From assembly GCA_021796275.1 (NCBI GenBank), contig JAJYOI010000001.1:6803-70802 (forward strand): a DNA stretch of 64,000 nucleotides. Reading direction: 5' to 3'. Source of the DNA: Bacteroidota bacterium. Its GTDB lineage: Bacteria > Bacteroidota > Ignavibacteria > UBA10030 > UBA8401. Shown in pieces: positions 17,547-58,345 of this stretch (its first letter is position 1; each line of letters starts with the position of its first letter). Position numbers and translations under genes: made by a program. The notes under the pieces were generated by a model. That model was not told the DNA's origin. It made no database searches and saw only the letters and a list, made by a program, of their open reading frames with translations.

Positions 17547-17549
17547 GTT

Positions 17550-18581: not shown

Positions 18582-18584
18582 CAG

Positions 18585-19523
18585 TCAGAATTTGAAAAGT
18601 GAATTCACATACCGCAGAGAGACGTTCCGCCGCGATTGGATGTCTTTCCGCTTTGCCAAGAGAACCGGAAAAAATTTGATAACCTCGACAGCTGCCTGAA
18701 GCTGTTCCTTGATAAATCCTTGTTGAAGAATCTTCATCGCATTATAAATTCTGCTCAGAATAATTAACGCAGCACGCAATAAAAAAATCTGCCACGGAAC
18801 ATTTTTGAGCAGGTAAAAGAAAGGATTTCGCGCATGAAGTTTTGCCGCAAGGCTCGTAATCTGTAATTTTGTCCCACCGCGTTTGTGATAGCATACGGCA
18901 TGTGGAGTATAGAGACACTTATAGCCCAGAAGCTGGGAACGAAAATCATGATCAATATCTTCACCCCAGGCAAAAAAAGATTCATCGAATAAGCCGACTT
19001 CATCAAACATCTTTCTGCGATAAAGCGCAGCGCCTGCGCATGCACCGAAAACATAATGGAAAGAATCGAACGAACCGTTATCCAGTTGTTTTTCACCACG
19101 CGAACGACCGTTCCCGGCACAACTCAACTCATCACCGGCGGCATCAATAATATTGCGATGATAAAAGTTCATCATCTTACAAGCAACAGAGCCGATTTCA
19201 TCATGTTGGCGAATTGCTTCAATCATTTTTTCCAGCCAATCGCCCGTTAATTCAATATCGTTATTCAATAGCGCAATATAGTCATTGCGTGTCGCAGTGA
19301 TTCCCGCGTTCACCGCACACGCAAATCCTTTATTCTCACTGAACTGAATCCACCGTACTTGAGGAAAATTTTCCGCTACATACGAAACTGAACTGTCGCT
19401 CGATCCATTATCAACAACGATAACTTCGAAATCGGAATACGTCTGCTTGAAAATCGAATTCAAACAGAGCGGCAAATGCTCCATGCCGTTATAATTCGGA
19501 ATGACAATGCTAACGGCCGGCAT
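18585..19523 (-). CDS. Glycosyltransferase family 2
   Basis: VSIVIPNYNGMEHL...VDNGSSDSS. Confidence 0.8.
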   Translation of the reverse strand: MPAVSIVIPNYNGMEHLPLCLNSIFKQTYSDFEVIVVDNGSSDSSVSYVAENFPQVRWIQFSENKGFACAVNAGITATRNDYIALLNNDIELTGDWLEKMIEAIRQHDEIGSVACKMMNFYHRNIIDAAGDELSCAGNGRSRGEKQLDNGSFDSFHYVFGACAGAALYRRKMFDEVGLFDESFFAWGEDIDHDFRSQLLGYKCLYTPHAVCYHKRGGTKLQITSLAAKLHARNPFFYLLKNVPWQIFLLRAALIILSRIYNAMKILQQGFIKEQLQAAVEVIKFFPVLLAKRKDIQSRRNVSLRYVNSLFKF

Positions 19524-20493
19524 GGAGAGGAACTCCTCGGTGACGAACGAACATCGTGTAAAACGATTTCAAAAAAAGTTTATGCTTTCTTTTGCTATAC
19601 GCAGCCGATTCGAAGGCATTATTGCCAGCAACGGTAATGCTGCGGATGAGATAGATAATGCCGGAGTTACAAACAAGAACGAGTTCGACAAAAAATGCGG
19701 AAAGTTTCGATCTGTTTTTTTTGAAAAACAAAATCAAACTGAGGGTAAATCGTTCAAACACCCATTCATTGTTCTTTGATACAAAGCTCCTTCCGCCAAC
19801 GTGAGTGAGCGCTGCTTTCCGATACAGAACAAGCTTCCACCCTGCTCTTCTCATCCGTAAAGACCAATCCACGTCTTCAAAAAATAATTTGTATTCTTCA
19901 TCCATCAATCCAACAGCAACAATCACGCTGCGCCGAACGAGAATACATGCGCCGGGAATTTGCTCTACCTCAGAATATTCTTCATCCTGAAGCGGCGCTT
20001 CCAGGAATCGCTCAACAAGCCATTGTATTTTTCTGCTCCACGGCTCGAAAAAGGTATGGAAAAATATAACTTGAAAAAGAGTGGGGATTTTTCTCACATA
20101 ACCTTTTTGAAAAACACCGTCTGCATTCATCAACATCGGCATAAGAGCGCCGGCATCAGCGTGTGATTCAAAAAAAGAAATAAGCTTTTCAATCGCTTCC
20201 GGCTGAAGCACAATGTCTGGATTAAGAATCAAAATATATTTACCTTGCGACCTGCGTATTCCTTCATTGACACCCCATGCAAAACCGTTGTTGACAGTGC
20301 TCGCCACTAACGAAACTTCTGCGTAATTAGTTTTCACTGTATCGCAACTCCCATCGCTTGATGCGTTGTCAACGACGATCACTTCTTTTGAAAACGCGGA
20401 AAGGCACCGGACGATAGAATCCAAACACGAAAGGAGATATTCCTTTGTATTCCAATTCACAATGATAATAGAAAGATCGGGTAGCATGTTCAT
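19510..20493 (-). CDS. Glycosyltransferase family 2
   Basis: LSIIIVNWNTKEYL...VDNASSDGS. Start taken at Met MNMLPDL (ATG 20493), downstream of the flippase gene's stop. Confidence 0.75.
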   Translation of the reverse strand: MNMLPDLSIIIVNWNTKEYLLSCLDSIVRCLSAFSKEVIVVDNASSDGSCDTVKTNYAEVSLVASTVNNGFAWGVNEGIRRSQGKYILILNPDIVLQPEAIEKLISFFESHADAGALMPMLMNADGVFQKGYVRKIPTLFQVIFFHTFFEPWSRKIQWLVERFLEAPLQDEEYSEVEQIPGACILVRRSVIVAVGLMDEEYKLFFEDVDWSLRMRRAGWKLVLYRKAALTHVGGRSFVSKNNEWVFERFTLSLILFFKKNRSKLSAFFVELVLVCNSGIIYLIRSITVAGNNAFESAAYSKRKHKLFLKSFYTMFVRHRGVPLHAGR

Positions 20494-20503
20494 AATGTGC
20501 CAT

Positions 20504-22048
20504 TCAGCGTTCGAAAGATGCTGCAACCTTACGAACGATACGACGGACAATACCAATGTCGTATTCATCGAAAACTTTGAACAGCAACAGTGTTGCAACA
20601 ACAATTCCAAGATACAGCATTACGGCTAATAATAAACTGACAATTGTTCCTTCCCGAGAAAATGACATCGGATATATTGCATGAATGACAACTTGAGCGA
20701 TCAACGCAGCCCCAATACAAATTGACATTGGCTTGATGAAGATGCGGGCAATCAGCAGTGAAGAAATGCCCATGGTTCGGTGAAACGCGACAATGAAATA
20801 AAAAGCCCCAATAATAAGTGAAAGCGATGTCCCTAATGCGATGCCAACGGGACCAAATAGAAATGCACCGAGCAACGTAATGCAAATATTTATGACTGCT
20901 ACCAAAAGCCCGTAATTTCTGTCCAATTCTGTTTTACCTAACCCTGCAGTCATCGAACTAGCAACACCTGTGACAATATTAAAGAAATAGCCAATCGCAA
21001 GAAGCCGTACAAAAGCGACTGATGTTTCAAACCCCGCGCCGACCCAGGCATAAATAATATCGGAAACAAAAACAGTAACAAAGCAGAAAAAAAAGCTTGC
21101 GACTATTACAATATATTTCGTTCCGCGTTTATACAATGCCGTTAATTGTTCGCGATCATCTTTTGCATTGATTTCAGCAATCGCCGGAATGAGCGCCGTG
21201 AGGATCATAAATGAAAATGAACGCGCAGCACTTGTCAACCGCACGCTTAAATCATAATACGTTGAAACGAACGCGCCAAAAAAACGAAGGCTGAAAATCC
21301 GATCCGTCTGGAAAAGAATAATTTGCCCCATTCGACTTACCTGCAGATTGAACCCGTAATGCAAGAACTGTTTTACTTTTGTGAAAGCAAAATAGCGCGG
21401 GCGAAGCTTTAATGACGGAACAAGTCGGAATGCAATGACACTTAGACACATGGCATTGACTGCCGCAACAATCAGATTGTTCACAACCAAACCGCGCACG
21501 CCATAACCGGAACGAAGAACAAAAATTGTTCCGGCGATAGTAAGTGTTTGTGTAACAAAAGAAACATATAAATTGACTTCCATTCTTTGAATGCCGTTGA
21601 TGATTGACGTTACCGGAGACGCAATTCCCGACAGAACAAAAATACACACTGCAACTTTTAACACAAACTCTGCATCGCCAAGAATTGCCTGAGGCACTCC
21701 GGCAAGAGAGAGCAGAACGCCGCCAAGAGAAAGTGCTAAACCAATAATTACGATCCCGATGGCTGCATAGACGATCACTCCCGTGTTGACAACTTCGAGA
21801 AGGTCATCCATCATGCCTTTTGTGTAATATTCACTGATATATTTTACGAAGGCAGTGCCTGTTCCCATGTCCAATAAGCCGATGTAGGCAGTCAATGCGC
21901 CGATAATTGCCCACACCCCGCCATACATTTGTTCGCCGAGTGAATGGACAATAAACGGGACAAGAAAAAAGTTGGAGACAAAAATGAAAAAAAAATTGAT
22001 CGAATTGGTGATGGTGTTGCGGATTATTTTACGCGGCGTTTCATTCAT
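20504..22048 (-). CDS. Wzx-like polysaccharide flippase (MOP/MATE superfamily polysaccharide biosynthesis protein)
   Basis: About 12-14 predicted TM helices across 514 aa. It sits inside the GT cluster. N-terminus IRNTITNSINFFFIFVSNFFLVPFIV. Confidence 0.7.
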   Translation of the reverse strand: MNETPRKIIRNTITNSINFFFIFVSNFFLVPFIVHSLGEQMYGGVWAIIGALTAYIGLLDMGTGTAFVKYISEYYTKGMMDDLLEVVNTGVIVYAAIGIVIIGLALSLGGVLLSLAGVPQAILGDAEFVLKVAVCIFVLSGIASPVTSIINGIQRMEVNLYVSFVTQTLTIAGTIFVLRSGYGVRGLVVNNLIVAAVNAMCLSVIAFRLVPSLKLRPRYFAFTKVKQFLHYGFNLQVSRMGQIILFQTDRIFSLRFFGAFVSTYYDLSVRLTSAARSFSFMILTALIPAIAEINAKDDREQLTALYKRGTKYIVIVASFFFCFVTVFVSDIIYAWVGAGFETSVAFVRLLAIGYFFNIVTGVASSMTAGLGKTELDRNYGLLVAVINICITLLGAFLFGPVGIALGTSLSLIIGAFYFIVAFHRTMGISSLLIARIFIKPMSICIGAALIAQVVIHAIYPMSFSREGTIVSLLLAVMLYLGIVVATLLLFKVFDEYDIGIVRRIVRKVAASFER

Positions 22049-22057
22049 GTAAACAGT

Positions 22058-22945
22058 TCACCTTAGCTGAGAATGAAGCAACGACAATTCGGCTTTTGTG
22101 TCATGATGAAAAGAAAAAAGCTTCAGTGCAATAGGGCTTTTGGTCACTGCCATTAAACGGAACAAAAGAATCGGCAAAAGAAAATATTCTGCTTTTCTGC
22201 CAAAATGCATGCGGTAGTATAATAATATATTGCAGTACATTTCCAACCGTAGCTTCGGATTCGCCTGCTTCGTGCTGCGGCTGCCATGATGCATAACAAC
22301 CGCCAGCGGCGTAAAATATATTTCCCATCCACTGTGTTTTATCCGCCGACATAATTCCACATCGTTATAGAGAATTGTTAATCGTTCATCGAAGAGTCCG
22401 AAAGAATCCACGATCGCTTTGCGAACAATTAAGCACGTTGCATCAGGCTGATCTACAGAGCGCACGACGTCATGTTTGAACTTTTTCATCAGATAACCGG
22501 AGTTCAACCAATTGAGCGAACAATATAAAGCCGCTGCGTTCAGCGGAGTCGGAAAGCGTTTGCACGAAGGTTGAAGCTTCCCGTCCGGTGTAACAAGCTT
22601 GCAGCCTACGGCACCGGCATTGTGGTATTCATTCATAAATTGTATCATCTTTTCCAACGCGTTTCCACGAACTTCGGTATCGCTGCCTAAAAGTAAAATA
22701 TATTTCCCTTTTGCAATTTCCGCTCCCTGATTATTTGCCCGCGCATAACCAAAATTTTTTGCATTACAAATCAGGACCACATCAGGAAATTCACTTTCGA
22801 TCATATTTGCTGAGCCATCAACCGATGCGTTATCAACAACTATGATTTCATACGTTCCCTTTGGAGGTTGCACATAAATTGAACGCACACATTCCCTCAA
22901 CAAATCTCGGGTATTCCACGATGCGATGATGATCGATAATTCCAC
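22058..22945 (-). CDS. Glycosyltransferase family 2
   Basis: LSIIIASWNTRDLL...VDNASVDGS. The GTG start lies immediately after the trpB TAG stop. Confidence 0.75.
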   Translation of the reverse strand: MELSIIIASWNTRDLLRECVRSIYVQPPKGTYEIIVVDNASVDGSANMIESEFPDVVLICNAKNFGYARANNQGAEIAKGKYILLLGSDTEVRGNALEKMIQFMNEYHNAGAVGCKLVTPDGKLQPSCKRFPTPLNAAALYCSLNWLNSGYLMKKFKHDVVRSVDQPDATCLIVRKAIVDSFGLFDERLTILYNDVELCRRIKHSGWEIYFTPLAVVMHHGSRSTKQANPKLRLEMYCNILLYYRMHFGRKAEYFLLPILLFRLMAVTKSPIALKLFSFHHDTKAELSLLHSQLR

Positions 22946-27702: not shown

Positions 27703-28488
27703 TCAATACACCACTTTTTCCAGCACTAAACCCTTCGCCGGCGCCGCCATCGAGGCACGCCGCCGGTCTTTTGCCTGAATGATGCCGGCAAATTCTTCAA
27801 CACTAATTTTTCCTCTTCCTACATCTATCAGCGTTCCGACAATAGCACGCACCATTCCGTGGAGAAAGCGGTTCGCACGAATAACAAAAACTGCTTTGCC
27901 ATTTTCGGGTTGTGTCGCCTTCGGCGCCATTTTCAACTTCCATTCTGCTTCGAACACCGTGCAGAGAAAGTGCCGCTTTACGGCATCCCGTACAGCGGGA
28001 TTCTTCTGTTCAAAACTCGATGTGCAGAACGATTGGAAATCGTGCGTGCCGAGCAGCAACCGTGCGGCTTCATTCATAACAGTGAAATCCAATTCATAGA
28101 AAATCTGCCAGCACATTTTTCGGTCAAGCGCAGTCCGCTGCTGCGATATGTAATAATGATAGATGCGTTCTTTAGCACTGTACCGCGCAGAAAATTTTTC
28201 AGGAACTTCTTCAAGATGACGGACGACGATGTCTTCGGGAAGGACACCGTTCAACGCACGCAATAAATCTTTCTCGGCGACAGCGGAATTCAATAAAAAA
28301 TTTGCCGCCTGTCCCCGCGCATGAACTCCGGCATCGGTTCTTCCGGCACCGACAACGGAAATTGATTCTTGCGTTACCTGCGCAACGGCTTCTTCTATCA
28401 AAGCCTGAACAGACCTGCCCTTCGCTTGGCGCTGCCAACCGATGAAATCCGTGCCGTCGTATTCAATAATGATCTTGATATTCCGCAT
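27703..28488 (-). CDS. truA: tRNA pseudouridine(38-40) synthase
   Basis: IIIEYDGTDFIGWQRQ and GAGRTDAGVHARGQ catalytic-Asp motif. Start taken at MRNIKIII (ATG 28488). Confidence 0.9.
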   Translation of the reverse strand: MRNIKIIIEYDGTDFIGWQRQAKGRSVQALIEEAVAQVTQESISVVGAGRTDAGVHARGQAANFLLNSAVAEKDLLRALNGVLPEDIVVRHLEEVPEKFSARYSAKERIYHYYISQQRTALDRKMCWQIFYELDFTVMNEAARLLLGTHDFQSFCTSSFEQKNPAVRDAVKRHFLCTVFEAEWKLKMAPKATQPENGKAVFVIRANRFLHGMVRAIVGTLIDVGRGKISVEEFAGIIQAKDRRRASMAAPAKGLVLEKVVY

Positions 28489-28596
28489 AGTGGAAAACAA
28501 TTGCCACAACACCACAGAGTTCACAGAGAATTATTTTAACGGCTTGATTGATAGTCTCTGTGCTCTCAGTGGCTACACTTTTATGTAACCCGTGTA

Positions 28597-28628
28597 CACG
28601 AAAAATCCCGTCACATGCAGCTTGCGTG
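28597..28628 (-). terminator. Rho-independent terminator on the minus strand (8-bp GC stem cccgtcac/gtgacggg, 11-nt loop, then AUUUUUCG)
   Basis: Stem, loop and U-run are all visible in the sequence. It lies in the 420-bp non-coding gap upstream of truA. Confidence 0.5.
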
Positions 28629-28676
28629 ACGGGACAATTTTATAATTGAGACATCTTAAAAACTCAAATGTTTGGT

Positions 28677-28705
28677 GGGACAGACATTCCTGTCTGTCGT
28701 TTTCG
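28677..28705 (+). terminator. Plus-strand hairpin (gacagac/gtctgtc, 7 bp) followed by GTTTTCG. It is a possible terminator for an unannotated plus-strand transcript.
   Basis: Inverted repeat and T4 run read from the sequence. There is no plus-strand CDS upstream. Confidence 0.25.
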
Positions 28706-28804
28706 ATCTAAATTTAATGTTCTTGACAGGCAACAATGACTGTCCTACCAATTTTTCAGATGTCTCTAATTCATAATTTATGTTACGCATGGGAAAAACC
28801 CGCC

Positions 28805-28881
28805 TAAAAAAATAAATTCGTCATGCCCGAACGCTTTAGTCGGGCATCCATACTTGAATTCCCGCCTTCGCGGGAATGACG
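28805..28881 (-). terminator. Compound two-hairpin structure with a closing stem, followed on the minus strand by a U-rich run. It is the putative terminator of gene 28945-29691 and may be a REP-like palindromic element.
   Basis: Hairpin A is gcccga-N9-tcgggc (28825-28845). Hairpin B is attcccgc-cttc-gcgggaat (28858-28877). The closing stem is cgtcat/atgacg. On the minus strand AATTTATTTTTTT follows. Confidence 0.45.
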
Positions 28882-28944
28882 TTACTCTGGTTTTGATTTT
28901 CAAAACAATCTTTTTTGCGTAACATGACTTCATAATTTATTTTT

Positions 28945-29691
28945 TCAAAACACCCCGCGCACAGTAAGAAGAAGTCCGTCAGGCACGCCGCTGTCGCTAA
29001 GCAAGGAAGATTCAATTCGGAGATTGATTCCACTTTCTGCCACATTATTATTGTAGCGGCGCACAAGTCGTGCAGCATTCAATGCGCTCACAACATGATT
29101 CACAATGATTGCTCCGATCACAAACCGTGAATTGTTGAACACGCGATCGCTCGAAACCCGTGCCGTGCGAAATTGCTGGCGGTTGGCATCGGAATCCCAT
29201 TGCCAGGCATATCCCTGATTTGGATCGTACACTTTGTCCGGCTGACGATCACGCAGCTTCTTATCGTTGTATTCGTACACATTCATAAAATTGCTGACAT
29301 CAACGTAGAACTGATCACTCTTCCCGCTTGCAGGCACGCCTGAATGTGAGGCGGCAAATGCGCGCCCGTCGTTCTGAAGCCACGTGCCGTATGTTTCAAA
29401 TGAAGCGTACGTCAGCCACAAACCCGCTTCTGCGCCGAGAAAATATCGCCCGGATTCGAAACCGCCGGCGTACCATTCGCCTAACCCGGGAACTAAGAGC
29501 GAGTAGACAACAGCCGCCGCTACAGATTTTTTTGTCGAAGAGCTTTGTGTATTTTCGAAGATGCCGGACGGCGGCGTTGCCGCATTCATTTCTTTCACTA
29601 ATTGTTGACGGAGCGGAATTGTTTCAGTCTGTGCAACAGCATTTCCTGTCACACAAAGAATATAAAAAACAATCAATAATTTCAGTTTCAC
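28945..29691 (-). CDS. Hypothetical secreted protein of 248 aa
   Basis: Signal peptide MKLKLLIVFYILCVTGNAVAQ. It is Gly/Tyr/Trp-rich and possibly beta-rich periplasmic or OM-associated. Confidence 0.5.
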   Translation of the reverse strand: MKLKLLIVFYILCVTGNAVAQTETIPLRQQLVKEMNAATPPSGIFENTQSSSTKKSVAAAVVYSLLVPGLGEWYAGGFESGRYFLGAEAGLWLTYASFETYGTWLQNDGRAFAASHSGVPASGKSDQFYVDVSNFMNVYEYNDKKLRDRQPDKVYDPNQGYAWQWDSDANRQQFRTARVSSDRVFNNSRFVIGAIIVNHVVSALNAARLVRRYNNNVAESGINLRIESSLLSDSGVPDGLLLTVRGVF

Positions 29692-29771
29692 CGTTATGCC
29701 TCAAATACTAATTTGTACTGTGAAAAATACAAAATCGAATTATGAAATGAAAATTTTGCCGCCGAAAAAAT

Positions 29772-31235
29772 TTATTCGACAAGTGAAGGAACTAACGGAA
29801 GATACGGAATTGACACCGGCACCGCACATGCCTGCTCAACTTCTCCAACACATGCATCGGATGTTACATGCACCAGCCGGACACGCACGAAGGAATTTTC
29901 CAGCGACGTGAGCGCCTGTGGCGCCATGGCGCCCTGCGCCGGATGATACGGCACTTGAACGCGCACGTAATTATCCGTGTACCCGGAGAATCCCGCTGAA
30001 CGGGATGCCGTAAAGTCATCAACCACGCCGTCGCATGTGCGGCACATATTGTCCTCACTCGTTCCTTCCGCCATGCCGCTGGCGTGGTTTTCAACAAGAA
30101 CATCAAGGCTGCGGCCAATTTGTGTTTCGTAAAACGCATGTTTCTTTTTGTGACCAAGCGTGCGAAGCATTTCGCTTCTGCGGTAACGAATGCGCGGTTC
30201 CACGCGTCCTTCAAATTCCACCGACGGAGTATTGGCGCGTTCAGAGTATGTGAAAACATGCAAATAGCTCACAGGAAGAACATGAAGAAAATTGTATTCC
30301 TGCTCAAAAATTTCATTCGTCTCACCCGGAAAGCCGACAATCACATCAGCACCAATGCCGGCATCAGGATTTTTATCTTTTATAGTATGAATCAGATTGG
30401 CATAAGATGACGTGGTATAACGGCGGCGCATTGCTTTCAATTGTGCGTCACTGCCGCTCTGTAATGGAATATGAAAATGCTTGCAGATTTTTTCAGAAGC
30501 GAGCCAATACCCAAGCAATGAAGGTGTAAGCAAATTCGGTTCAATAGAACTGACACGGATGCGCTCAATTCCTTCCACACTTTCCAACGCCTGAAGCAGC
30601 ATCAAGAGTGAATTTCCATCATGCTTTCCGTAATCACCAACGTTTACTCCGGTAAGGACAATTTCTTTGTAGCCCATTTCTTGAAGCTTGTGCGCTTGCT
30701 GAACACATGCTTCGATAGATTGACTTCTGCTTTTGCCGCGGGCCAGCGGAATTGTGCAGAACGAACAACTGAAATCGCAGCCGTCCTGTACTTTTAAGAA
30801 TGCACGCGTGCGGTCATCCACTCCGCCTGAATACGCAATACCGAAATCTTTTGCTTCGTCAATCGAGGGAACAAAAATTTTCGGCGCCGGCTGTTTTGTA
30901 AAATCACCGGCGTATGAGAAGACGTGAAATTTTTCCGATGCTCCAAGAACAATATCAACGCCGTCTATGGAAGCAATTTGCTCCGGTTCAAGCTGCGCAT
31001 AACAGCCCAGCACAATCACACATGCATCGGGTGAGGTGCGCAAAGCACGCCGCACAATTTGTCGGCACTCCCGATTCGCGCGCTCGGTTACACTGCACGT
31101 GTTTATCACACACACATCAGATGGCTGGTCAAACGAAGTAACGGAAAAGCCATGGTCAACGAACTGGCGTTCGAGACTCGCCGTTTCGGCATAGTTCAAC
31201 TTGCATCCGAGTGTATAAAAGGAAACAGTCTTCAT
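29772..31235 (-). CDS. mtaB: Radical-SAM methylthiotransferase, MiaB-like (MtaB/RimO family)
   Basis: UPF0004 N-terminal domain YTLGCKLNYAETASL. CxxxCxxC radical-SAM cluster (CDFSCSFC). A TRAM-like C-terminus. Confidence 0.75.
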   Translation of the reverse strand: MKTVSFYTLGCKLNYAETASLERQFVDHGFSVTSFDQPSDVCVINTCSVTERANRECRQIVRRALRTSPDACVIVLGCYAQLEPEQIASIDGVDIVLGASEKFHVFSYAGDFTKQPAPKIFVPSIDEAKDFGIAYSGGVDDRTRAFLKVQDGCDFSCSFCTIPLARGKSRSQSIEACVQQAHKLQEMGYKEIVLTGVNVGDYGKHDGNSLLMLLQALESVEGIERIRVSSIEPNLLTPSLLGYWLASEKICKHFHIPLQSGSDAQLKAMRRRYTTSSYANLIHTIKDKNPDAGIGADVIVGFPGETNEIFEQEYNFLHVLPVSYLHVFTYSERANTPSVEFEGRVEPRIRYRRSEMLRTLGHKKKHAFYETQIGRSLDVLVENHASGMAEGTSEDNMCRTCDGVVDDFTASRSAGFSGYTDNYVRVQVPYHPAQGAMAPQALTSLENSFVRVRLVHVTSDACVGEVEQACAVPVSIPYLPLVPSLVE

Positions 31236-31250
31236 TGAATTGCTTCACTA

Positions 31251-31307
31251 TAAAAAAAGTCCCGCTGAACAATCCCCGTATACGGGATAAGCGGGACTCT
31301 TTTTTTC
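31251..31307 (-). terminator. Long stem-loop flanked by an A-run and a T-run (agtcccgct...agcgggact). It is the rho-independent terminator downstream of rpsA.
   Basis: 9-bp outer stem with an inner cccgta/tacggg hairpin. There is a T-run on both strands. Confidence 0.6.
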
Positions 31308-31321
31308 TCTGATCATCTTCG

Positions 31322-33079
31322 TCAGTTCGTTGAGGACTCTGGCACCGGCGGCGTATCGCTGCTCGGCGGAGGAGGAACAGACATTGTGTCCTTTAACGTG
31401 ACCGGCGGGAGCTTATGCTGAGCAACATACTCATCAACAAGCTTCTGTTCTTTACCGCGCAGATACTCAACGACAGAAAGAACAATTTTCTTGCTCTCGC
31501 GCTCAAATTCGATCACACTTAACGGCAACGTATCGCCGACCTGAAACGCTTCAGCAATATTCCTGATCTGCGTCTGCGATAATTGTGAGAGTGGAACAAA
31601 TCCATCGACACCAAGAGGAAGTTCAACGATCACGCCCTTTTTAATGATGCGGACAATTTTTCCTTCGACTTCTGTGCCAATCTTGTAGGAATCTGCGAAC
31701 GCTTCCCACGGATTGTCGCTTAATTGTTTGTGGCCGAGAGAAATGCGGCGCTGCTCCACATCAACGCTCAAGATAACGACATCAATGGAATCGCCTTTTT
31801 TCACAACCTCGCCGGGGTGACGAATTTTCTTTGTCCACGACAAGTCAGAAATGTGGATCAAGCCGTCAACGCCTTGTTCCAATTCGACGAACACACCGAA
31901 GTTCGTCAAGTTGCGGACAATACCACTATGGCGCGAGCCGATCGGATATTTCTGCAACAGCGTCATCCACGGATCAGGTTCAAGTTGTTTAATGCCGAGA
32001 GAGATTTTTTTATTCTCCTTATCAAGCGAAAGAATAACGGCATCTATAATTTGTCCCATTGAAACAACCTGCGACGGATGTTTGATATGCTGTGTCCAGC
32101 TCATTTCAGAAATGTGAATCAAACCTTCAATGCCTTTTTCAATTTCAATGAACGCTCCGTAATCCGTCAACGAAACCACTTTACCGGAGACCTTTGTGCC
32201 GACCGGATATTTCGTTTCGATATTTTCCCACGGATGCGGCTGCAATTGTTTGTAGCCGAGAGAAATTCTCTTTTTCTCTGCATCGAAATCGAGAACGACA
32301 ACATTGATAACTTGATCAAGCTTCACAATTTCCGACGGGTGACCGACACGTCCCCACGATAAATCGGTGATATGAACAAGTCCGTCAACGCCGCCAAGAT
32401 CAATGAACACGCCGAAATCAGAAATCGCTTTGACTGTTCCTTCGAGAATTTGTCCTTTCTCAAGACTGTCAAGAATTGCTTTGCGTTGGTCAGCAATTTC
32501 TTCTTCAACAAGAATTTTATGACTCACGACAACATTTTCAGAGGGATGATTGATTTTCACCACACGAAAATCCATTTCTCTTCCGATGAGTGCATCAAAA
32601 TCGCGCACAGGCCGAACATCAATTTGCGAGCCGGGAAGGAACGCATCAATGCCAAGCAAATCGACGACAATTCCTCCTTTGATACGCCGGACACACCGCC
32701 CCTTCAACACTTCTCCCGTTTCATACGAACGCGTCACGCGCTCCCAAATCCGCATGAAATCTGCTCGTTTCCGCGAGAGAACAAGCTGGCCGTCTTTATC
32801 TTCAATGCTTTCGAGAAAGACCTCAACTTCATCGCCGACTTTCAGCTCAGAAAGATTTGTGAACTCATTTTTCGCGACCGTGCCTTCCGATTTGAATCCG
32901 ATATCCAGCGCAATTTCGTTGTCGCCGATATGTACAATTCTTCCTTTGACAATTTCGCCTTGCGAAATTTTCCCAAGGGTGCTTTCGTACAACGCGGCTA
33001 ATTCCTTAAATTCAGATTCGGAATACTCCTTTTCGTCTCCGAATCCTAGTGTGGTTTTTACTGCTTCATCTGTAGACAT
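31322..33079 (-). CDS. rpsA: 30S ribosomal protein S1
   Basis: Multiple S1 RNA-binding repeats (GxV.G.V..i..fGaFV.l..g..GL.HiSe). 585 aa. Confidence 0.9.
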   Translation of the reverse strand: MSTDEAVKTTLGFGDEKEYSESEFKELAALYESTLGKISQGEIVKGRIVHIGDNEIALDIGFKSEGTVAKNEFTNLSELKVGDEVEVFLESIEDKDGQLVLSRKRADFMRIWERVTRSYETGEVLKGRCVRRIKGGIVVDLLGIDAFLPGSQIDVRPVRDFDALIGREMDFRVVKINHPSENVVVSHKILVEEEIADQRKAILDSLEKGQILEGTVKAISDFGVFIDLGGVDGLVHITDLSWGRVGHPSEIVKLDQVINVVVLDFDAEKKRISLGYKQLQPHPWENIETKYPVGTKVSGKVVSLTDYGAFIEIEKGIEGLIHISEMSWTQHIKHPSQVVSMGQIIDAVILSLDKENKKISLGIKQLEPDPWMTLLQKYPIGSRHSGIVRNLTNFGVFVELEQGVDGLIHISDLSWTKKIRHPGEVVKKGDSIDVVILSVDVEQRRISLGHKQLSDNPWEAFADSYKIGTEVEGKIVRIIKKGVIVELPLGVDGFVPLSQLSQTQIRNIAEAFQVGDTLPLSVIEFERESKKIVLSVVEYLRGKEQKLVDEYVAQHKLPPVTLKDTMSVPPPPSSDTPPVPESSTN

Positions 33080-33228
33080 TAACGCTCCTTAACGTCCCGC
33101 TTTTAACGAGACTGCTTATTGTTTTTCGCCGGGTGTGAACAGCCATCACATTCATTCCGCGAAAAAATTCAACAAGCAAAAATAGATTATGGTTGATTGT
33201 TTTAGTGAATTACTGATGACTTAAAAAA

Positions 33229-34119
33229 TTATGCACGCACATGTACGATCTCTTCGATTGAAGATTTGATACGCTCCATCAGCCACTGCGGCGTTGACGT
33301 CGCACCGCTGATGCCGACCGTTTCAACATTTTCAAACCACTCTGGCTGAAGTTCGTTTTCATCTTCAACAAAATACGTCCGCGGGTTTTCTTCTCTGGCA
33401 ATTTCAAAAAGCACTTTTCCGTTTGAACTTTTCTTCCCGGCAACAAATATCAGCACATCGTTGCTTCGGGAAAACTCGCGCAGTTTTTTATCACGTCCCG
33501 ATACCTGTCCGCAAATCGTGTCTTTCGCATGAAAATCAATCGCCATTTCTTCAAAGGTGCCAACTTCAAATTCTGCCTTGATCTTCGACCGGATTTCATC
33601 ACGGATGGCATAGAACGTCGCTTTATCCATTGTGGTTTGAGAAAACAATACTGTGTTTCGTGTGAGATCGAGTTTCGAAACTTCTTCCACCGACTTGATT
33701 ACGATTGCTGTCCCGTTCGTGTGGCCGACCAAGCCGATCACTTCGGCATGATCTTTTTTTCCAAAGATCACAATCTGGTACTCTTTGTCATAGAACTTGC
33801 GGATACGTTCCTGAACTTTCGTCACAACCGGGCATGTCGCATCAATCAATTCGATGCCTAATTCTTTCGCGCGGCGATATGTTTCAGGCGGCTCACCATG
33901 AGCGCGAATAAGAACTTTTGCATCTTTAATATTTTCGAGATCGGCATGAGAAATTGTTTTCAATCCTTCTTCTCCCAGCCGCTCAATCTCAAGCGGATTG
34001 TGAATAATATCACCAAGCGAATATAATTTCTTCGATTCCCGCAATTCCTGTTCTGCAATCTCAATAGTCCGCACAACGCCCCAGCAGAAACCGGAATTCG
34101 GATCAACCGTTACTTTCAT
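33229..34119 (-). CDS. ispH: 4-hydroxy-3-methylbut-2-enyl diphosphate reductase
   Basis: GFCWGVVRTI N-terminus with conserved Cys positions. 296 aa. Confidence 0.9.
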   Translation of the reverse strand: MKVTVDPNSGFCWGVVRTIEIAEQELRESKKLYSLGDIIHNPLEIERLGEEGLKTISHADLENIKDAKVLIRAHGEPPETYRRAKELGIELIDATCPVVTKVQERIRKFYDKEYQIVIFGKKDHAEVIGLVGHTNGTAIVIKSVEEVSKLDLTRNTVLFSQTTMDKATFYAIRDEIRSKIKAEFEVGTFEEMAIDFHAKDTICGQVSGRDKKLREFSRSNDVLIFVAGKKSSNGKVLFEIAREENPRTYFVEDENELQPEWFENVETVGISGATSTPQWLMERIKSSIEEIVHVRA

Positions 34120-34826
34120 CGCATCTTCTCCATCACCTTCGCCACAATAAACTCTACCTGTTCTTCCACACTCAGTGTTGTCGTATCAAGAACAATTGCA
34201 TCCTTTGCCTGCCTCAGAGGACTGAGAGTGCGGCTTGTATCTTTCTTGTCTCTGTCGACAATTTCCTTTTCCAATTCATCTAACGAAACATTTGTACCGC
34301 GTTCTGCCAGTTCCTTGCTCCGCCGCCGCGCGCGTTCATGCGCCTCGGCAATCATAAAAATTTTTACATCGGCTTTTGGGAAAACGACTGTGCCAATATC
34401 TCTGCCTTCCAGCACAATGCCGCCTTTCCTTCCCATCGCTTGCTGCTCGCGTACCATCAGCGCTCTTACCTCTGCAATGCTGCTCACAGCGCTCACTGCT
34501 TTGGTAACTTTCGGACGGCGAATATCTTCACTCACATCAACACCATCCAGCAACACGCTCGACTTTCCGCTGTTGTGAAACAAACGAACTGTCGTCTGTG
34601 GTACAAGGCGCGCAATGCTTGCCGTGTTCTGTATGTCAATTCCTTGTTGAAGCACTTTCAAAGTAAACGCGCGATACATCGCGCCGGTATCAACATGCAA
34701 GTATCCAAGCCGTTCTGCAACAAGTTTGGCAGTTGTGCTTTTTCCCGACGCCGCAGGTCCATCTATTGCAATAATAAGCCGCTTCAAAAGGTTCCGTATG
34801 TTCAGTTTGGATTTGAAATATACCAT
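34116..34826 (-). CDS. cmk: Cytidylate kinase
   Basis: IAIDGPAASGKST P-loop. About 225 aa. Overlaps the ispH start by 4 nt. Confidence 0.85.
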   Translation of the reverse strand: MVYFKSKLNIRNLLKRLIIAIDGPAASGKSTTAKLVAERLGYLHVDTGAMYRAFTLKVLQQGIDIQNTASIARLVPQTTVRLFHNSGKSSVLLDGVDVSEDIRRPKVTKAVSAVSSIAEVRALMVREQQAMGRKGGIVLEGRDIGTVVFPKADVKIFMIAEAHERARRRSKELAERGTNVSLDELEKEIVDRDKKDTSRTLSPLRQAKDAIVLDTTTLSVEEQVEFIVAKVMEKMR

Positions 34827-34869
34827 TTTTTTGAAAGTGAGGCAACTTGTTTAATTCAGAAGCTGTCCA

Positions 34870-34898
34870 TTGCATTGCTTCCGCCTTTTATTTAATTT
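34870..34898 (+). promoter_or_regulatory. Candidate sigma-70 promoter TTGCAT-N17-TAATTT in the divergent cmk / GT2 intergenic region
   Basis: Hexamers and the 17-nt spacer are read from the sequence. It would give a very short leader for the GT2 gene at 34908. Confidence 0.3.
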
Positions 34899-34907
34899 GA
34901 TTCAGCT

Positions 34908-36032
34908 ATGAAATACGAACTTGCTGTTATCATCATTAACGCAATCCTTTTTTTTTGCTACCTCGCCATTCATAGCCTTGTCATACGAGGTATGGCAAAG
35001 CTTCGCAAGGGAAACAATACAGAAATGCGCCGGTTTTCAATCATCGTTGCGGCACGAAATGAGGAAAAGTGCATCGGAAGCTGCCTCGAATTTTTGGCGA
35101 AACTCGAATATCCAAAGAAGCTGTACGAAATCATCGTCGTGAACGACCGCTCCACTGACGCGACCGAAAAAATCGTTCAGGAATACCAAAGAAAATATCC
35201 AATCATTCGCTTGATCTCACTCGACAACATCACGTCCGATCTGCCGGGAAAAAAAAATGCGCTGAACGAAGCGATCAAGGCAAGCACGAATGAGATACTC
35301 GCTTTCACAGACGCAGATTCCATTGTACCGCCGCAATGGCTTACGATACTTTCAGAATATTTTGAGCCAACTGTCGGAGCTGTTGCGGGTTACTCGCCTT
35401 TTGAAGAACATTCTATCGAAACACTTTCTGCCAAAATCGGAGACGGCTTCCTTCGCTATGAAGAAATGAAGAACTCATCAGCTACAGCTGCTGGTATTGG
35501 ATTGAAAAATGCTTACATGTGCACCGGAAGAAATTTTGCTTACCGCAAAAAAGTTTTCGAACAGGTTGGCGGATTTCAAAAAATCAAGCACTCGATCAGC
35601 GGCGATGACGATCTGCTCATCCAGCTTATGCAAAAAGAAACGACATGGGAAATCCGTTATATGTCCGAACCGGAAAGTTTTGTTAAAACTCAACCACCGT
35701 TGACATTCAAGGAGTTTATCAATCAGCGGAAGCGGCATTTTTCTGCCGCACAATTTTATCCGGCAAAGATGAAAATCATCTTCGCGTTGATTCACTCATT
35801 TAACGCCGTATTGATGATTTCGTTTTTTTTCGCCCCGGCTACAGCAGGAATATTTGCGATCGGGAAATTTATCATTGACGGCATTCTTATCCGTAAAGCA
35901 ATACAAACATTCGGGAATCGGAATCTGTTTAAATGGTTTGTTCCATTGGAAATTTGTTTTATCTTCTACAACCTGTTGATAGGCCCGCTCGGCCTTGTTG
36001 GAAAATTTAATTGGAAAAGTTCTCTCGAATGA
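34908..36032 (+). CDS. Membrane-bound glycosyltransferase family 2 (N-terminal TM, GT-A domain, C-terminal TM helices)
   Basis: RFSIIVAARNEEKCIGSCLEFL...VVNDRSTDATEKIV and a DxD region. Several C-terminal TM helices. It is a paralog of 36988-38151. Confidence 0.75.
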   Translation: MKYELAVIIINAILFFCYLAIHSLVIRGMAKLRKGNNTEMRRFSIIVAARNEEKCIGSCLEFLAKLEYPKKLYEIIVVNDRSTDATEKIVQEYQRKYPIIRLISLDNITSDLPGKKNALNEAIKASTNEILAFTDADSIVPPQWLTILSEYFEPTVGAVAGYSPFEEHSIETLSAKIGDGFLRYEEMKNSSATAAGIGLKNAYMCTGRNFAYRKKVFEQVGGFQKIKHSISGDDDLLIQLMQKETTWEIRYMSEPESFVKTQPPLTFKEFINQRKRHFSAAQFYPAKMKIIFALIHSFNAVLMISFFFAPATAGIFAIGKFIIDGILIRKAIQTFGNRNLFKWFVPLEICFIFYNLLIGPLGLVGKFNWKSSLE

Positions 36033-36991
36033 AATTCTTGTCCGATCATCCGCTTCTTACCTTCACCGCGAAAATTGCCATTGGCATTGGACTCATCATT
36101 GCGCTCGTCTCATATATTAACTTCCAGAACTTGCTTGATTCGCTTGTCCATGCAAAAATCATTTATCTAATCGTCGGTGGAGCACTCATGATCGCAAACC
36201 TCACAGTGCAGTTTTATCGCTGGAGATTTCTTTTGCGATTAATTGATGAATCCGTTTCAAACGATGCAATTTTTTCTTCCCTGTTCATAGGGTTTGCTGC
36301 CGGTTTTTTTACACCGGGGCAAATCGGTGAATACGGCGGCAGGGTTGCTGCGTTGCGCTCTTTACGGGGATCAAAAGTACTTGCCTCAAGTTTAATCGAC
36401 AAACTGTACTTATTGGCTGTCACCATCACCGGCGGAATCATCGCGTTGATGTTGTTTGCCAGCTTTTTCTTACCGCGCTATTGGAGCGTTTCGTACATCG
36501 CTATCGGCTTGGCAATCGTGATTATTATGAGCATCGTGATACTGTACCCTCAACGTGTAAAACTCGTCCTGACTTTGCTGCCGAAAAAAATTCTGGAAAA
36601 TCGAGCCGTTGCCGCTTTCCTTTCAATCAATGAATTTTTTCGACGGAAACAGGCGCGCGCATTTCTCCTTTTGACGATCGTGCTGTATTCAATTATACTC
36701 TCTCAATACGTGCTCATTGCAAACTCATTCGAGAGCGTTCCATTTTATTCGGGCGTGATGTGTGCGGCATCCATCCTTATTGTCAAGTCGGCATTTCTTC
36801 CAATTTCTATCGGCGATCTTGGAATCCGCGAAGGAACGGCAATTTTCTTTTTCAGCCGCGCAGGTTTTTTACCGGCAACAGCATTTAACACTTCGATGTT
36901 CTTATTTTTTTTCAACATCTTCATCCCAAGTTTGGTTGGCGCTTTTTATATCATCCGATCAAAAGGGCAACAATCGAAATTTATTCCATGA
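36011..36991 (+). CDS. UPF0104 flippase-like integral membrane protein (lysylphosphatidylglycerol-synthase TM-region-like)
   Basis: 326 aa with about 8 TM helices. The conserved RW/R motif after TM2 (QFYRWRFLLR) is typical of PF03706-like proteins. It overlaps both flanking GT2 genes. Confidence 0.55.
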   Translation: MEKFSRMKFLSDHPLLTFTAKIAIGIGLIIALVSYINFQNLLDSLVHAKIIYLIVGGALMIANLTVQFYRWRFLLRLIDESVSNDAIFSSLFIGFAAGFFTPGQIGEYGGRVAALRSLRGSKVLASSLIDKLYLLAVTITGGIIALMLFASFFLPRYWSVSYIAIGLAIVIIMSIVILYPQRVKLVLTLLPKKILENRAVAAFLSINEFFRRKQARAFLLLTIVLYSIILSQYVLIANSFESVPFYSGVMCAASILIVKSAFLPISIGDLGIREGTAIFFFSRAGFLPATAFNTSMFLFFFNIFIPSLVGAFYIIRSKGQQSKFIP

Positions 36992-38151
36992 ATCTCTTCC
37001 CCGATATACTTTCGATTATTCTTTCCCTTCTTGGAATTATCTACGTACGGCAAATTTTTTTGTTCACCAGCGGCTTAAAGAAGCTACGAGAAGGAATTAT
37101 CGAACAACATCCCTCCATTGCTGTTGTCGTCCCAGCAAGAAATGAAGAAGCACACATCGGCGATTGTCTCTCGTCGCTTTTAAATCAAGACTATCCGAAA
37201 GATAAAATCACCATTGTTGTAGTTGACGATCAATCAACCGACAATACTTCGACAATTGTACAAAATTATGCTTCCAACTCGTCCAGAATAAAATTGCTGG
37301 GCGTTCAAAATCCCTCCAAGCATATTTCTCCAAAAATCAATGCACTGACGCTTGGCATTGCCCAGAGCAAAAGCGATATAATTTTTACAACCGACGCCGA
37401 TTGTATCGCAGGATCAAAATGGATTTCATCCATTATCAAACATTTTGCTCCTGAAGTCGGCATTGTCACGGGAACCACGGTTTTTGACAACAAACAAAAT
37501 GTTTCGCCTCTATTATTCGGTGTTCAATTCCTCGATTTTCTTTCTCACACGGCGTGTGCGGCAGGTGCCATCGGCAATGGAAATGTGAACAACTGCAATG
37601 GAAGTAATATGGCATTCCGGCGCTCAGCCTACGAAGCTGCTGGCGGATATTCTTCACTCGCACATCTCAATTCCGGAGATGATTCGCTTCTTGCCCAACA
37701 AATCGTCTCCAACACGAAATGGAAAATACGTTTTGCAAGTGAGCCTGAATCGCAGATGACAACTTTTCCTGTCGAACACTGGACAGATTTCCTTCAACAG
37801 CGCATGCGGTGGGCAGCACAAACCGCACATTACCGGCCGGCAATGCTTGTGTTTCTCGCAACTTCATTTCTCTTATACGCGCTTCTTTTTGTTTTGACGC
37901 CATTCTCGATTGCATTTTTCACCGAATTTCCGTCTCCGGTTATTGTGCTCTGTGGAAAATTTACGATCGATTATTTAATTCTCAAAAGATTCACAACGCT
38001 GACAAAGACTTCATCTGTGATGAAATTCTTTTTGCCTGCGGAAATTATCCACGTCCCTGCAATTCTCATAGCGGTGCTCGGGGGGTACTTTGGGCACTTC
38101 AAGTGGAAGGGACGAACTCTTCTGCGAACAATGGAAAAAGCGAGCGCGTAG
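36988..38151 (+). CDS. Membrane-bound glycosyltransferase family 2 (paralog of 34908-36032)
   Basis: SIAVVVPARNEEAHIGDCLSSLLNQDYPKDKITIVVVDDQSTDNTSTIV is clearly homologous to the upstream GT2 and has the same TM/GT-A/TM architecture. Confidence 0.75.
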   Translation: MNLFPDILSIILSLLGIIYVRQIFLFTSGLKKLREGIIEQHPSIAVVVPARNEEAHIGDCLSSLLNQDYPKDKITIVVVDDQSTDNTSTIVQNYASNSSRIKLLGVQNPSKHISPKINALTLGIAQSKSDIIFTTDADCIAGSKWISSIIKHFAPEVGIVTGTTVFDNKQNVSPLLFGVQFLDFLSHTACAAGAIGNGNVNNCNGSNMAFRRSAYEAAGGYSSLAHLNSGDDSLLAQQIVSNTKWKIRFASEPESQMTTFPVEHWTDFLQQRMRWAAQTAHYRPAMLVFLATSFLLYALLFVLTPFSIAFFTEFPSPVIVLCGKFTIDYLILKRFTTLTKTSSVMKFFLPAEIIHVPAILIAVLGGYFGHFKWKGRTLLRTMEKASA

Positions 38152-38248
38152 CTGCGGCGTAAAACTTTTCCATTGCACTTGGAAACTTGCTTTCCATTGA
38201 GTAAATTTATGTGCCCTTTAACGACCCACATTTCCTAAAGGAGCTGGC

Positions 38249-38896
38249 ATGAAACTCGACCGGTTTATCAAAGTCCTGCTTCCGCACGACGAAACATTTT
38301 TTTCCCTTTTTGAAGAATCAGCACAAAATCTTGTCACGGCAGCTGCCATAATGAAAAAGCTTGCTGCCGCAAAGACAAAAACAGAACAAGAAAAATTCGT
38401 TCAAGAAATTCGTGGCTGTGAACATGCGGGTGATTCAATTACACACAAGATTTTTTCCGAACTAAACGGAACATTTGTAACACCCTTTGACCGTGAGGAT
38501 ATTCACCTTCTCGCTTATTCACTCGACGAAATTATGGACCAAATTGACGGCTCGGCCCGGCGGTTCTATTTATATAAATTAAAAAAATGGCCTAAAAATT
38601 CGGTTCAGCTCATCAAGATCATTGAAAAATCTGTTTCAGAACTTCGAAGTGGCGTAACTCTTTTACGGAATCTTCAACAAATTGACGAGCTGCAAAAAGT
38701 TTTTACAACTGTCAACGAATATGAAAACGAAGCGGACACTGTCTTTGAGGAGGCAATGGTAGGACTTTTTGGAAAAGAAAGAGATCCTTTCCAGCTTATC
38801 AAACTGAAAGAAGTTTACGTCGGACTGGAAACGGCAACTGACAGTTGTGAAGATGTTGCTAACGTTCTCGAATCAATTGTCATCAAACACGCCTAA
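38249..38896 (+). CDS. DUF47-family (PhoU-like) phosphate-transport regulator
   Basis: 215-aa helical protein immediately upstream of the PiT transporter, which is the canonical DUF47-PiT pair. Confidence 0.7.
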   Translation: MKLDRFIKVLLPHDETFFSLFEESAQNLVTAAAIMKKLAAAKTKTEQEKFVQEIRGCEHAGDSITHKIFSELNGTFVTPFDREDIHLLAYSLDEIMDQIDGSARRFYLYKLKKWPKNSVQLIKIIEKSVSELRSGVTLLRNLQQIDELQKVFTTVNEYENEADTVFEEAMVGLFGKERDPFQLIKLKEVYVGLETATDSCEDVANVLESIVIKHA

Positions 38897-38914
38897 TTAT
38901 TTTTCGAACTCTTT

Positions 38915-58280: not shown

Positions 58281-58312
58281 GAAAACAATAAAAAAGCCGC
58301 GCTAACAGCGCG
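58281..58312. terminator. Bidirectional rho-independent terminator (gccgcgct-aaca-gcgcggc flanked by an A6 and a T6 run) shared by hslU (+) and the FadL-like gene (-)
   Basis: Perfect 7-8-bp GC stem with poly-A upstream and poly-T downstream. Confidence 0.7.
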
Positions 58313-58345
58313 GCTTTTTTATTGTACAATGCTTTTCTCGCGCAG

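Follow-up and report, generated by a model that had tools for sequence, protein, structure and literature searches.

Small palindromic mobile elements as the probable source of an enlarged, hairpin-rich spacer upstream of truA in a Bacteroidota genome

The subject of this study is a 453-nt, hairpin-rich spacer (positions 28492–28944; the gap) in a 64-kb stretch of DNA from a Bacteroidota bacterium (contig JAJYOI010000001.1); the whole of this stretch is referred to as the window. All of the genes around the gap are encoded by the minus strand, in the order MiaB-like gene, 248-aa gene, gap, truA, and trpD. The radical-SAM MiaB-like gene occupies 29772–31235; the 248-aa gene, upstream of the gap, occupies 28945–29691 (stop codon at 28945–28947); and truA (tRNA pseudouridine synthase A), downstream of the gap, occupies 27703–28491. 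The 248-aa protein has a signal-like N-terminus and no Pfam domain; it has 234 homologues, those with a source name being from metagenome-assembled genomes (MAGs) labelled Bacteroidota, and Por_Secre_tail domains are found in the neighboring genes, both of which point to an uncultured bacterium of the Bacteroidota type.

The initial annotation described four structures in the gap, that is, a minus-strand terminator, a plus-strand hairpin, a three-way structure, and a segment of about 190 nt enclosed by terminators that was proposed as a candidate small RNA (sRNA); all four are present. Of the perfect hairpins in the window that have a stem of 7 bp or more, five are located within 28606–28906 (28606–28634, 28679–28698, 28823–28847, 28858–28877, and 28890–28906). 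When 28590–28950 is folded as RNA, the z score is −8.2 for the minus strand and −10.4 for the plus strand, and 0/100 shuffles fold as well; the folds show three nested palindromic blocks, which we designate A, B, and C, not four independent hairpins.

Block A (28600–28634, minus strand) is a hairpin with a perfect 9-bp stem, TCCCGTCAC/GTGACGGGA, at 28606–28634, followed by UUUUU in the transcript (a T-run, read as an A-run on the plus strand, at 28601–28605); its DNA fold has z = −4.4. The initial annotation recognized the terminator, but its coordinates (28597–28628), which take in the tail, left arm, and loop, were a few bases off and cut off most of the right arm. With its G+C-rich hairpin, the U-run directly after it, and a location downstream of the 248-aa gene, which is encoded by the same strand, block A has the form of an intrinsic (Rho-independent) terminator. 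We compared the gap with the syntenic loci of five relatives that were obtained by exact-protein look-ups of homologues of the 248-aa protein; a metagenome search with the same protein returned three distant relatives only, and the closer ones came from the protein search and the exact look-ups. The gap to truA is 86 nt in L222 (77% identity in the 248-aa protein), 85 nt in L224 (76%), 109 nt in L226 (70%), 174 nt in L227 (GCA_028873075.1; 70%), and 25 nt in L219 (45%). In the alignment with the four close relatives, the hairpin and T-run of block A are the sole common structure, and 28641–28928 is absent from all of the relatives. Block A is conserved in 4/4 close relatives; in its 11 predicted pairs, the changes are restricted to G-U wobbles and one broken pair. 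Because of this conservation, block A is assigned, from the sequence comparison, as the predicted ancestral intrinsic terminator of the 248-aa gene.

Block B (28648–28766) is a 119-bp imperfect long palindrome (GAGACATCT...AGATGTCTC; DNA fold z = −5.5) that is absent from the relatives and is flanked by copies of TAATT at 28643–28647 and 28767–28771. It includes the plus-strand hairpin, GACAGACA-TTCC-TGTCTGTC at 28679–28698 followed by GTTTTCG, as the initial annotation had described. Block C (28777–28928) is a 152-bp element with the ends TTTATGTTACGCA... and ...TGCGTAACATGAC that is also absent from the relatives. It is bordered by two copies of a 7-bp target-site duplication (TSD), TTCATAA, at 28770–28776 and 28929–28935; in the relatives, including at the orthologous site of L222, TTCATAA occurs as a single copy, that is, as the empty site. 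Removal of blocks B and C, together with one copy of each duplication, leaves a sequence that is colinear with that of L222 over the whole stretch between the stop codon and the terminator, both included. A further window-specific insert of 83 nt (28489–28571; block D) is located in the truA leader; it contains an imperfect inverted repeat, CACAGAG...CTCTGTG, and its structure is weak (DNA fold z = −2.0). For every block, the fold is significantly more stable than those of shuffled sequences. Because blocks B and C are absent elsewhere, are flanked by duplications, and can be excised cleanly, and because block D is specific to the window, the hairpin-rich island is the product of insertions. 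Thus, the 453-nt gap is very probably an ordinary terminator-bearing spacer that has been enlarged in this species approximately four-fold by small palindromic mobile elements and not a conserved sRNA gene.

Block C has the properties of a miniature inverted-repeat transposable element (MITE), that is, terminal inverted repeats (TIRs), a TSD with an empty site, small size, and the lack of coding capacity. Its inverted ends contain a perfect 10-nt repeat, ATGTTACGCA (28780–28789) and TGCGTAACAT (28916–28925), that closes the block; its DNA fold has z = −6.3; and the sole open reading frame (ORF) inside it is a 51-aa frame that runs through the hairpins. A MAG from the Chitinophagaceae contains at least five copies of a related ~165-bp element with the same core, with 16-bp TIRs (CTGAAGTTACGCAAAA) that contain GTTACGCA, and with the 7-bp TSDs TAATGAA, TAAGTAA, and TAAATGA; its right arm aligns with the right arm of block C. 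Given the same core, the presence of TIRs and 7-bp TSDs, and the aligning right arm, block C belongs, as judged from sequence homology, to a MITE family of the Bacteroidota that has 7-bp TSDs and, as its core, a dimer of repetitive extragenic palindromic (REP) units.

The REP dimer in the core of block C is the three-way structure at 28819–28881 (63 nt), which is exactly as the initial annotation had drawn it; it contains the hairpins ATGCCCGA-N9-TCGGGCAT and ATTCCCGC-CTTC-GCGGGAAT, with CGTC/GACG closing on the minus strand. CGTC-tagged REPs are characterized by a terminal CGTC, 8–9-bp stems that start with A and T, 4–5-nt loops, and a CCA tail (PMC3733652). The loop is 4 nt in family 1 and 5 nt in families 2–4, and other lengths are found in a few families; CGTC-1 is equated with the dRS3 repeat of Neisseria and RPE-6 of Rickettsia (PMC3733652, Di Nocera et al. 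2013). The first unit, H2 (28819–28850, plus strand), is CGTC-ATGCCCGA-ACGCTTTAG-TCGGGCAT-CCA, with an 8-bp stem and a 9-nt loop; the second, H1 (28855–28881, minus strand), is CGTC-ATTCCCGC-GAAG-GCGGGAAT-TCA, with an 8-bp stem, and is of the CGTC-1/dRS3/NTS type. Both units have an unpaired terminal tag (H1 at 28881–28878 on the minus strand, H2 at 28819–28822 on the plus strand) and complementary A/T in the first two positions of the stem, as is typical of CGTC-1. The 4-nt loop of H1 (GAAG) is within the range for the CGTC families; the 9-nt loop of H2 is outside. The tags point outward, the arrangement that has been named HH and that predominates for CGTC repeats, which are known to occur in Bacteroidetes and Chlorobi (PMC3733652). 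On sequence grounds, the three-way structure is therefore a MITE core consisting of a tags-outward (HH) heterodimer of two CGTC-tagged REPs, which we refer to as the doublet; both it and the MITE belong to known kinds of elements, of which this is a new instance.

The proposal in the initial annotation that ATTCCC-N8-GGGAAT resembles a small dispersed repeat is supported: on the minus strand, CGTCATTCCCGCGAAGGCGGGAAT is a CGTC-1 REP that matches the dRS3/NTS core of Neisseria. The bare palindrome is not significant, with at least one match (one mismatch allowed) in 16/100 shuffles of the window; its significance derives from the identity of H1 to the dRS3/NTS core over 24 nt. For the H1 pattern CGTCATTCCCGC-N4-GCGGGAAT, more than 120 viral contigs are found among the matches listed, and 37 of the listed occurrences have the exact GAAG loop; H2-type units with similar loops are found in five viral contigs.

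The H2...H1 dimer is found in 90 stretches (91 copies) from approximately 25 other assemblies when one genome per species is scanned; in the same scan, the source species is not among the matches. Most of the hosts are Nitrospirota/Thermodesulfovibrionales; several Desulfobacterota, one of them the isolate Hydrosulfovibrio ferrireducens, and the Chitinophagaceae MAG also have copies. The doublet in the window is ~90% identical over 65–71 nt to copies in unrelated phyla. Of the doublets elsewhere, 83/91 have CCA after H2 and 85/91 have the equivalent CCA after H1. In three lineages with many copies, Nitrospirae DBS2-1.bin129 (L133–L216), Thermodesulfovibrionales Bin_104 (L146–L213), and Desulfurivibrionaceae, the conserved sequence is longer than the doublet and takes in arms that are specific to the lineage and end in inverted repeats of their own (CTAGTGT...ACACTAG; AACAGTYTCATAATA; ATTGNNNCGG...TTAAATA), so that the doublet is central in different elements of ~115–230 bp. 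Four different sets of inverted arms were seen around the doublet: two in Nitrospirota, one in Desulfobacterota, and one in Bacteroidota. Thus, the 63-nt element is dispersed, as the initial annotation had suspected, in that 91 copies occur in other genomes; within this genome, it is a single copy in the 76 kb that were scanned (the window and 12 kb adjoining its ends, the latter scanned for hairpins and CGTC tags only). The window contains no further 63-nt doublet (≤3 mismatches), dRS3 motif (≤1 mismatch), or generic tagged hairpin, and the adjoining 12 kb contains no further copy of the doublet. Full-text literature searches with the exact sequences of the hairpins gave no relevant match.

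Several of these observations weigh against the mobile-element interpretation and must be considered with it. The 76 kb contains one CGTC doublet and no second copy of blocks B, C, or D; because of this single copy, repetition within the genome, which is normal for MITEs and REPs, is not supported. The precise limits of block C are uncertain, because its outermost 3 nt are not complementary (TTT vs GTC) and an 11-nt reading of its flanking direct repeat (TTCATAATTTA) is equally open. None of the fetched loci yielded a transposase-bearing partner. The 5-bp duplication that flanks block B is weak evidence in AT-rich DNA. Block B also has no further copy in the 1.8 Mb of fetched DNA, and its 44-aa ORF matches only itself among 5.8 billion predicted proteins, a weak negative because such ORFs are rarely called.

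Like the CGTC-1 family, H1 has a CGTC tag, an 8-bp stem beginning with AT, and a 4-nt loop, and the doublet is an intergenic HH dimer downstream of a coding region. Unlike that family, it has the TCA tail of H1, the stem ATGCCCGA and 9-nt loop of H2, and a location inside a MITE with TIRs and a TSD; in addition, the described CGTC families have from 20 to thousands of units, whereas the 76 kb has one copy. The CGTC-1 dimers of Halothiobacillus neapolitanus, which are always inside a 41-bp palindrome (PMC3733652), resemble the doublet between its inverted arms. In layout, the closest described analogue of block C is QMITE2 of Coxiella burnetii, which is ~150–190 bp long, is flanked by 7–11-nt direct repeats, is located mainly in 3′ untranslated regions (UTRs) or between genes, and has a REP inside; QMITE2 differs from block C as known here in its GTAG-type REP, ~50 copies per genome, use as a target by IS1111, and verified sRNA (PMC5896051). 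REPINs, larger hairpins that are built of two inverted REP units and act as non-autonomous mobile elements, also resemble the doublet; however, the REPIN/RAYT tag is GTAG and that of the doublet is CGTC, and no RAYT gene was found near the doublet. Single-strand transposition of the REPIN/RAYT type is, to our knowledge, not expected to produce TSDs, and in this respect block C departs from it. CGTC REPs have been said to have no transposase of their own.

The most probable history is as follows. The ancestral spacer would have been ~90–110 nt long; in it, the stop codon would have been followed by a short AT-rich stretch, then by a single intrinsic terminator hairpin, and then by the truA leader. 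Both this AT-rich stretch, ahead of the terminator, and the leader would have received insertions. The 152-bp MITE with its REP heterodimer core is nearest the stop codon, and beside it lies the 119-bp long-hairpin element with its 5-bp duplication. The elements may be selfish or neutral passengers that are transcribed, as far as the conserved terminator, within the 3′ UTR of the 248-aa gene; the 248-aa mRNA would now cross blocks C and B before reaching block A. A U-rich run in the mRNA (AAUUUAUUUUUUUA; 28805–28818, minus strand) is located directly 3′ of the doublet, and AAUUUAUUUUUUU starts two bases past the closing stem of the doublet on the minus strand; the doublet and U-run may terminate or pause transcription ~130 nt past the stop codon. 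Alternatively, the stacked stem-loops may form a structured 3′ UTR that protects the 3′ end of the mRNA; both kinds of effect are known for REPs and MITEs elsewhere, and in other bacteria, structured 3′ UTRs stabilize the upstream mRNA or attract RNase III. For repeat biology, the locus provides a clean case in which a CGTC-REP dimer has been inserted in a MAG of the Bacteroidota type and in which both the target duplication and the orthologous empty site can be seen. With one copy in the 76 kb and a partly decayed look, the element is probably of small local importance; the more interesting point is general, that is, that the same REP heterodimer is central in unrelated palindromes of several phyla, with the Ssn nucleases as candidate movers. 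The layout connects REPs, MITEs, and these recently described single-strand nucleases.

In Neisseria, the small GIY-YIG protein SsnA binds single-stranded DNA at NTS hairpins (CGTCATTCCCGCGMAVGCGGGAATCYRG) and makes its cut upstream of them; the cytosine directly after the NTS palindrome is the nucleotide that binding most depends on (PMC11893778). Homologues of ssnA are found across phyla, flanked by such motifs in an NTS-ssnA-NTS layout, and a REP/nuclease/REP unit has been discussed as insertion sequence-like (PMC11893778, Nat Commun 2025). By tblastn, we located in the fetched loci eight small genes (95–105 aa) that are homologous to one another (L005, L064, L089, L091, L104, L137, L162, and L173), and the 3/3 that were checked match the GIY-YIG family PF01541. 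CGTC/TGTC hairpins are close by in 8/8 loci; in 7/8, they are within 8–59 nt on both sides with their tags outward, that is, these REP-flanked GIY-YIG genes match the published NTS-ssnA-NTS layout (PMC11893778). In L173 and L162, the GIY-YIG gene and its hairpins adjoin H2/H1 doublets. From its sequence, the short doublet looks like a gene-less form of the REP/GIY-YIG/REP unit.

One extension of the mobile-element interpretation, which we regard as unlikely, is that the doublet is a cross-phylum unit that has repeatedly become central in unrelated palindromes by insertion at the apices of extruded hairpins, with Ssn nucleases mobilizing CGTC REPs. The doublet would then be a gene-less derivative of the REP/GIY-YIG (Ssn)/REP unit, and the composites would have been amplified subsequently; if so, the window would present a fresh, datable composite insertion with its target duplication and empty site.

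A second possibility that involves these nucleases is that the doublet is maintained as a functional recognition site for a nuclease of the GIY-YIG Ssn type, in the way that NTS serves SsnA in Neisseria, and limits how far incoming single-stranded DNA recombines around this locus. H1 is identical to the NTS consensus CGTCATTCCCGCGMAVGCGGGAAT over its first 24 nt and matches the 28-nt NTS consensus at 26/28 positions (the mismatches are at position 25, C to T, and position 28, G to A); GIY-YIG genes are closely flanked by CGTC/TGTC hairpins in the eight fetched loci; and, as single-stranded DNA, each strand of the tags-outward dimer would bear one tagged hairpin of the kind that is cut by GIY-YIG Ssn nucleases. 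The window also contains a gene for DprA (DNA processing protein A; ~52935–54047, annotated on the matching ENA contig), a family that has a role in natural transformation in other bacteria. However, when the published rule for an NTS (CGTCATTCCCGCGMAVGCGGGAATCYRG with at most one mismatch; PMC11893778) is applied, H1 is excluded. The base after the palindrome is C in H2 and T in H1, whereas C is found after H1 in 91/91 doublets elsewhere. Neither unit fits the SRM pattern, HGTCWYN(0-2)YYVSBRHN(0-5)WNVSBRGN(0-2)RNCYNB, which has no match on either strand of block C or the window (a canonical NTS, included as the control, is matched). Neither a motif search nor tblastn found a GIY-YIG gene in the window, and one site per 76 kb is far below the density in the genomes in which the system has been studied. 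We consider a working recognition site improbable, and the link of this doublet to the Ssn nucleases is weak; because H1 has lost the cytosine reported to be most critical for SsnA binding, the window doublet is probably a decaying passenger copy.

The sRNA candidate of the initial annotation fared less well. It would be a discrete minus-strand transcript of ~190–200 nt between the doublet/U-run and the terminator at 28606–28634. The segment is present as claimed, is highly structured, and has its end at the conserved terminator; for Coxiella, sRNAs that derive from MITEs have been described (CbsR3, CbsR13, and CbsR16; PMC5896051), and FtrB, a Francisella sRNA model, includes the same REP hairpin. 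The Rfam comparison that had been recommended gave no support, however: no family reaches the gathering threshold anywhere in the window, a permissive search of the gap returns only chance-level miRNA/sRNA matches (best E-values 0.15–0.3), and the sub-threshold match to FtrB consists of the shared REP hairpin only. The segment is absent from 5/5 relatives, that is, from the four with 70–77% identity in the 248-aa protein and from the one with 45%. It consists of the 119-bp palindromic insertion, with its flanking duplications, and one arm of the MITE, and it is located inside the predicted 3′ UTR of the upstream gene. No promoter-like site was found on the minus strand of the gap by a sigma-70-type scan, which may not suit a Bacteroidota-type organism. 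The sRNA is, therefore, quite improbable. For annotation, the lesson is that stacked palindromic insertions in a 3′ UTR can mimic an sRNA gene with its own terminators and that comparison with close relatives resolves such cases quickly.

The fallback offered in the initial annotation, that the structures are simply tandem terminators, was incomplete; it holds for 28606–28634, a conserved terminator, but the other hairpins arrived by insertion. A fuller version, in which the hairpins serve as tandem or back-up terminators or as a truA attenuator and arose on the spot through point mutation and local duplication without any mobile element, accommodates the two hairpins with minus-strand T/U runs, of which one is the conserved terminator. 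We judge it very improbable nonetheless, given that the blocks have inverted ends and direct repeats and excise cleanly to yield the sequence of a relative, that copies of the doublet with ~90% identity occur in unrelated phyla, and that a homologous TIR-bearing element is found in another Bacteroidota MAG. Finally, although palindromic repeats can confuse assemblers, the probability of an assembly artefact (a chimeric join or mis-assembled repeat) is negligible, because an ENA metagenome contig and NCBI MAG GCA_027371395.1, two full-length assemblies that may share reads and so may not be independent, have the same sequence throughout the gap, and a third assembly (Logan) agrees over the stretch that it covers.

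Additional insertions are found in the genes that flank the gap. In truA, 27972–28001 encodes an in-frame 10-aa insert (PAVRDAVKRH); in the MiaB-like gene, 29991–30044 encodes an in-frame 18-aa insert (CRTCDGVVDDFTASRSAG); both are absent from all five relatives. The two inserts have a common 29-nt core (AGAATCCCGCTGWACGGGATGCCGTAAAG; 97% identical) in opposite orientation, and each contains an ATCCCG-N5-CGGGAT hairpin beside a GCCG...CGGC hairpin; by sequence, the truA insert looks like an internally deleted version of the MiaB-like insert. A second species-specific in-frame insert in the MiaB-like gene (29909–29941; 33 nt encoding the 11 aa AQGAMAPQALT) contains a perfect 14-nt palindrome, GGCGCCATGGCGCC. 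As short in-frame palindromic insertions, here absent from relatives, the truA and MiaB-like inserts resemble RPEs and intragenic REPs, and genes for tRNA pseudouridine synthases are among those known to be interrupted by REPs (PMC3733652, Di Nocera et al.); unlike CGTC REPs, these intragenic units lack a clean CGTC tag (CGGCATCCCG...). We also considered whether the 29-nt inverted repeat pair delimits an invertible segment; this was rejected, because each arm forms part of the reading frame of a conserved gene and an inversion would disrupt both genes.

When the window is compared over 11.7 kb with an 80%-identical relative, all eight of the window-specific insertion gaps of at least 9 nt are located in one 3.3-kb stretch (27972–31284), that is, in truA, block D, the stretch of blocks B and C (two), 29707–29756, the MiaB-like gene (two), and 31270–31284; the other 8.4 kb that was compared (31285–39691) contains zero such gaps. 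The possibility that this cluster marks a recombined-in segment was rejected, because the identity to L222 shows no local change. In L227, two single CGTC/TGTC-tagged REPs are found in other gaps of this gene cluster, after truA and after a CorC-like gene (~5861 and ~7995 of that locus); one of them combines the stem of H1 with a 9-nt loop of the H2 type, CGTCATTCCCGC-ACGCTTTTC-GCGGGAAT-CCA.

Other repeats in the window are located away from the gap. Direct-repeat families D1, D6, and D7 are spaced by ~1–2.5 kb in 17414–22849. Families D2 and D4 are spaced by 258–261 nt in 31722–32392, inside the gene for ribosomal protein S1, whose repeated S1 domains are their most likely source. At 58285–58325, a perfect 19-bp stem (ACAATAAAAAAGCCGCGCT-AAC-AGCGCGGCTTTTTTATTGT) forms the strongest hairpin of the window; it is flanked by A/T runs on either side, and a bidirectional terminator is its probable role.

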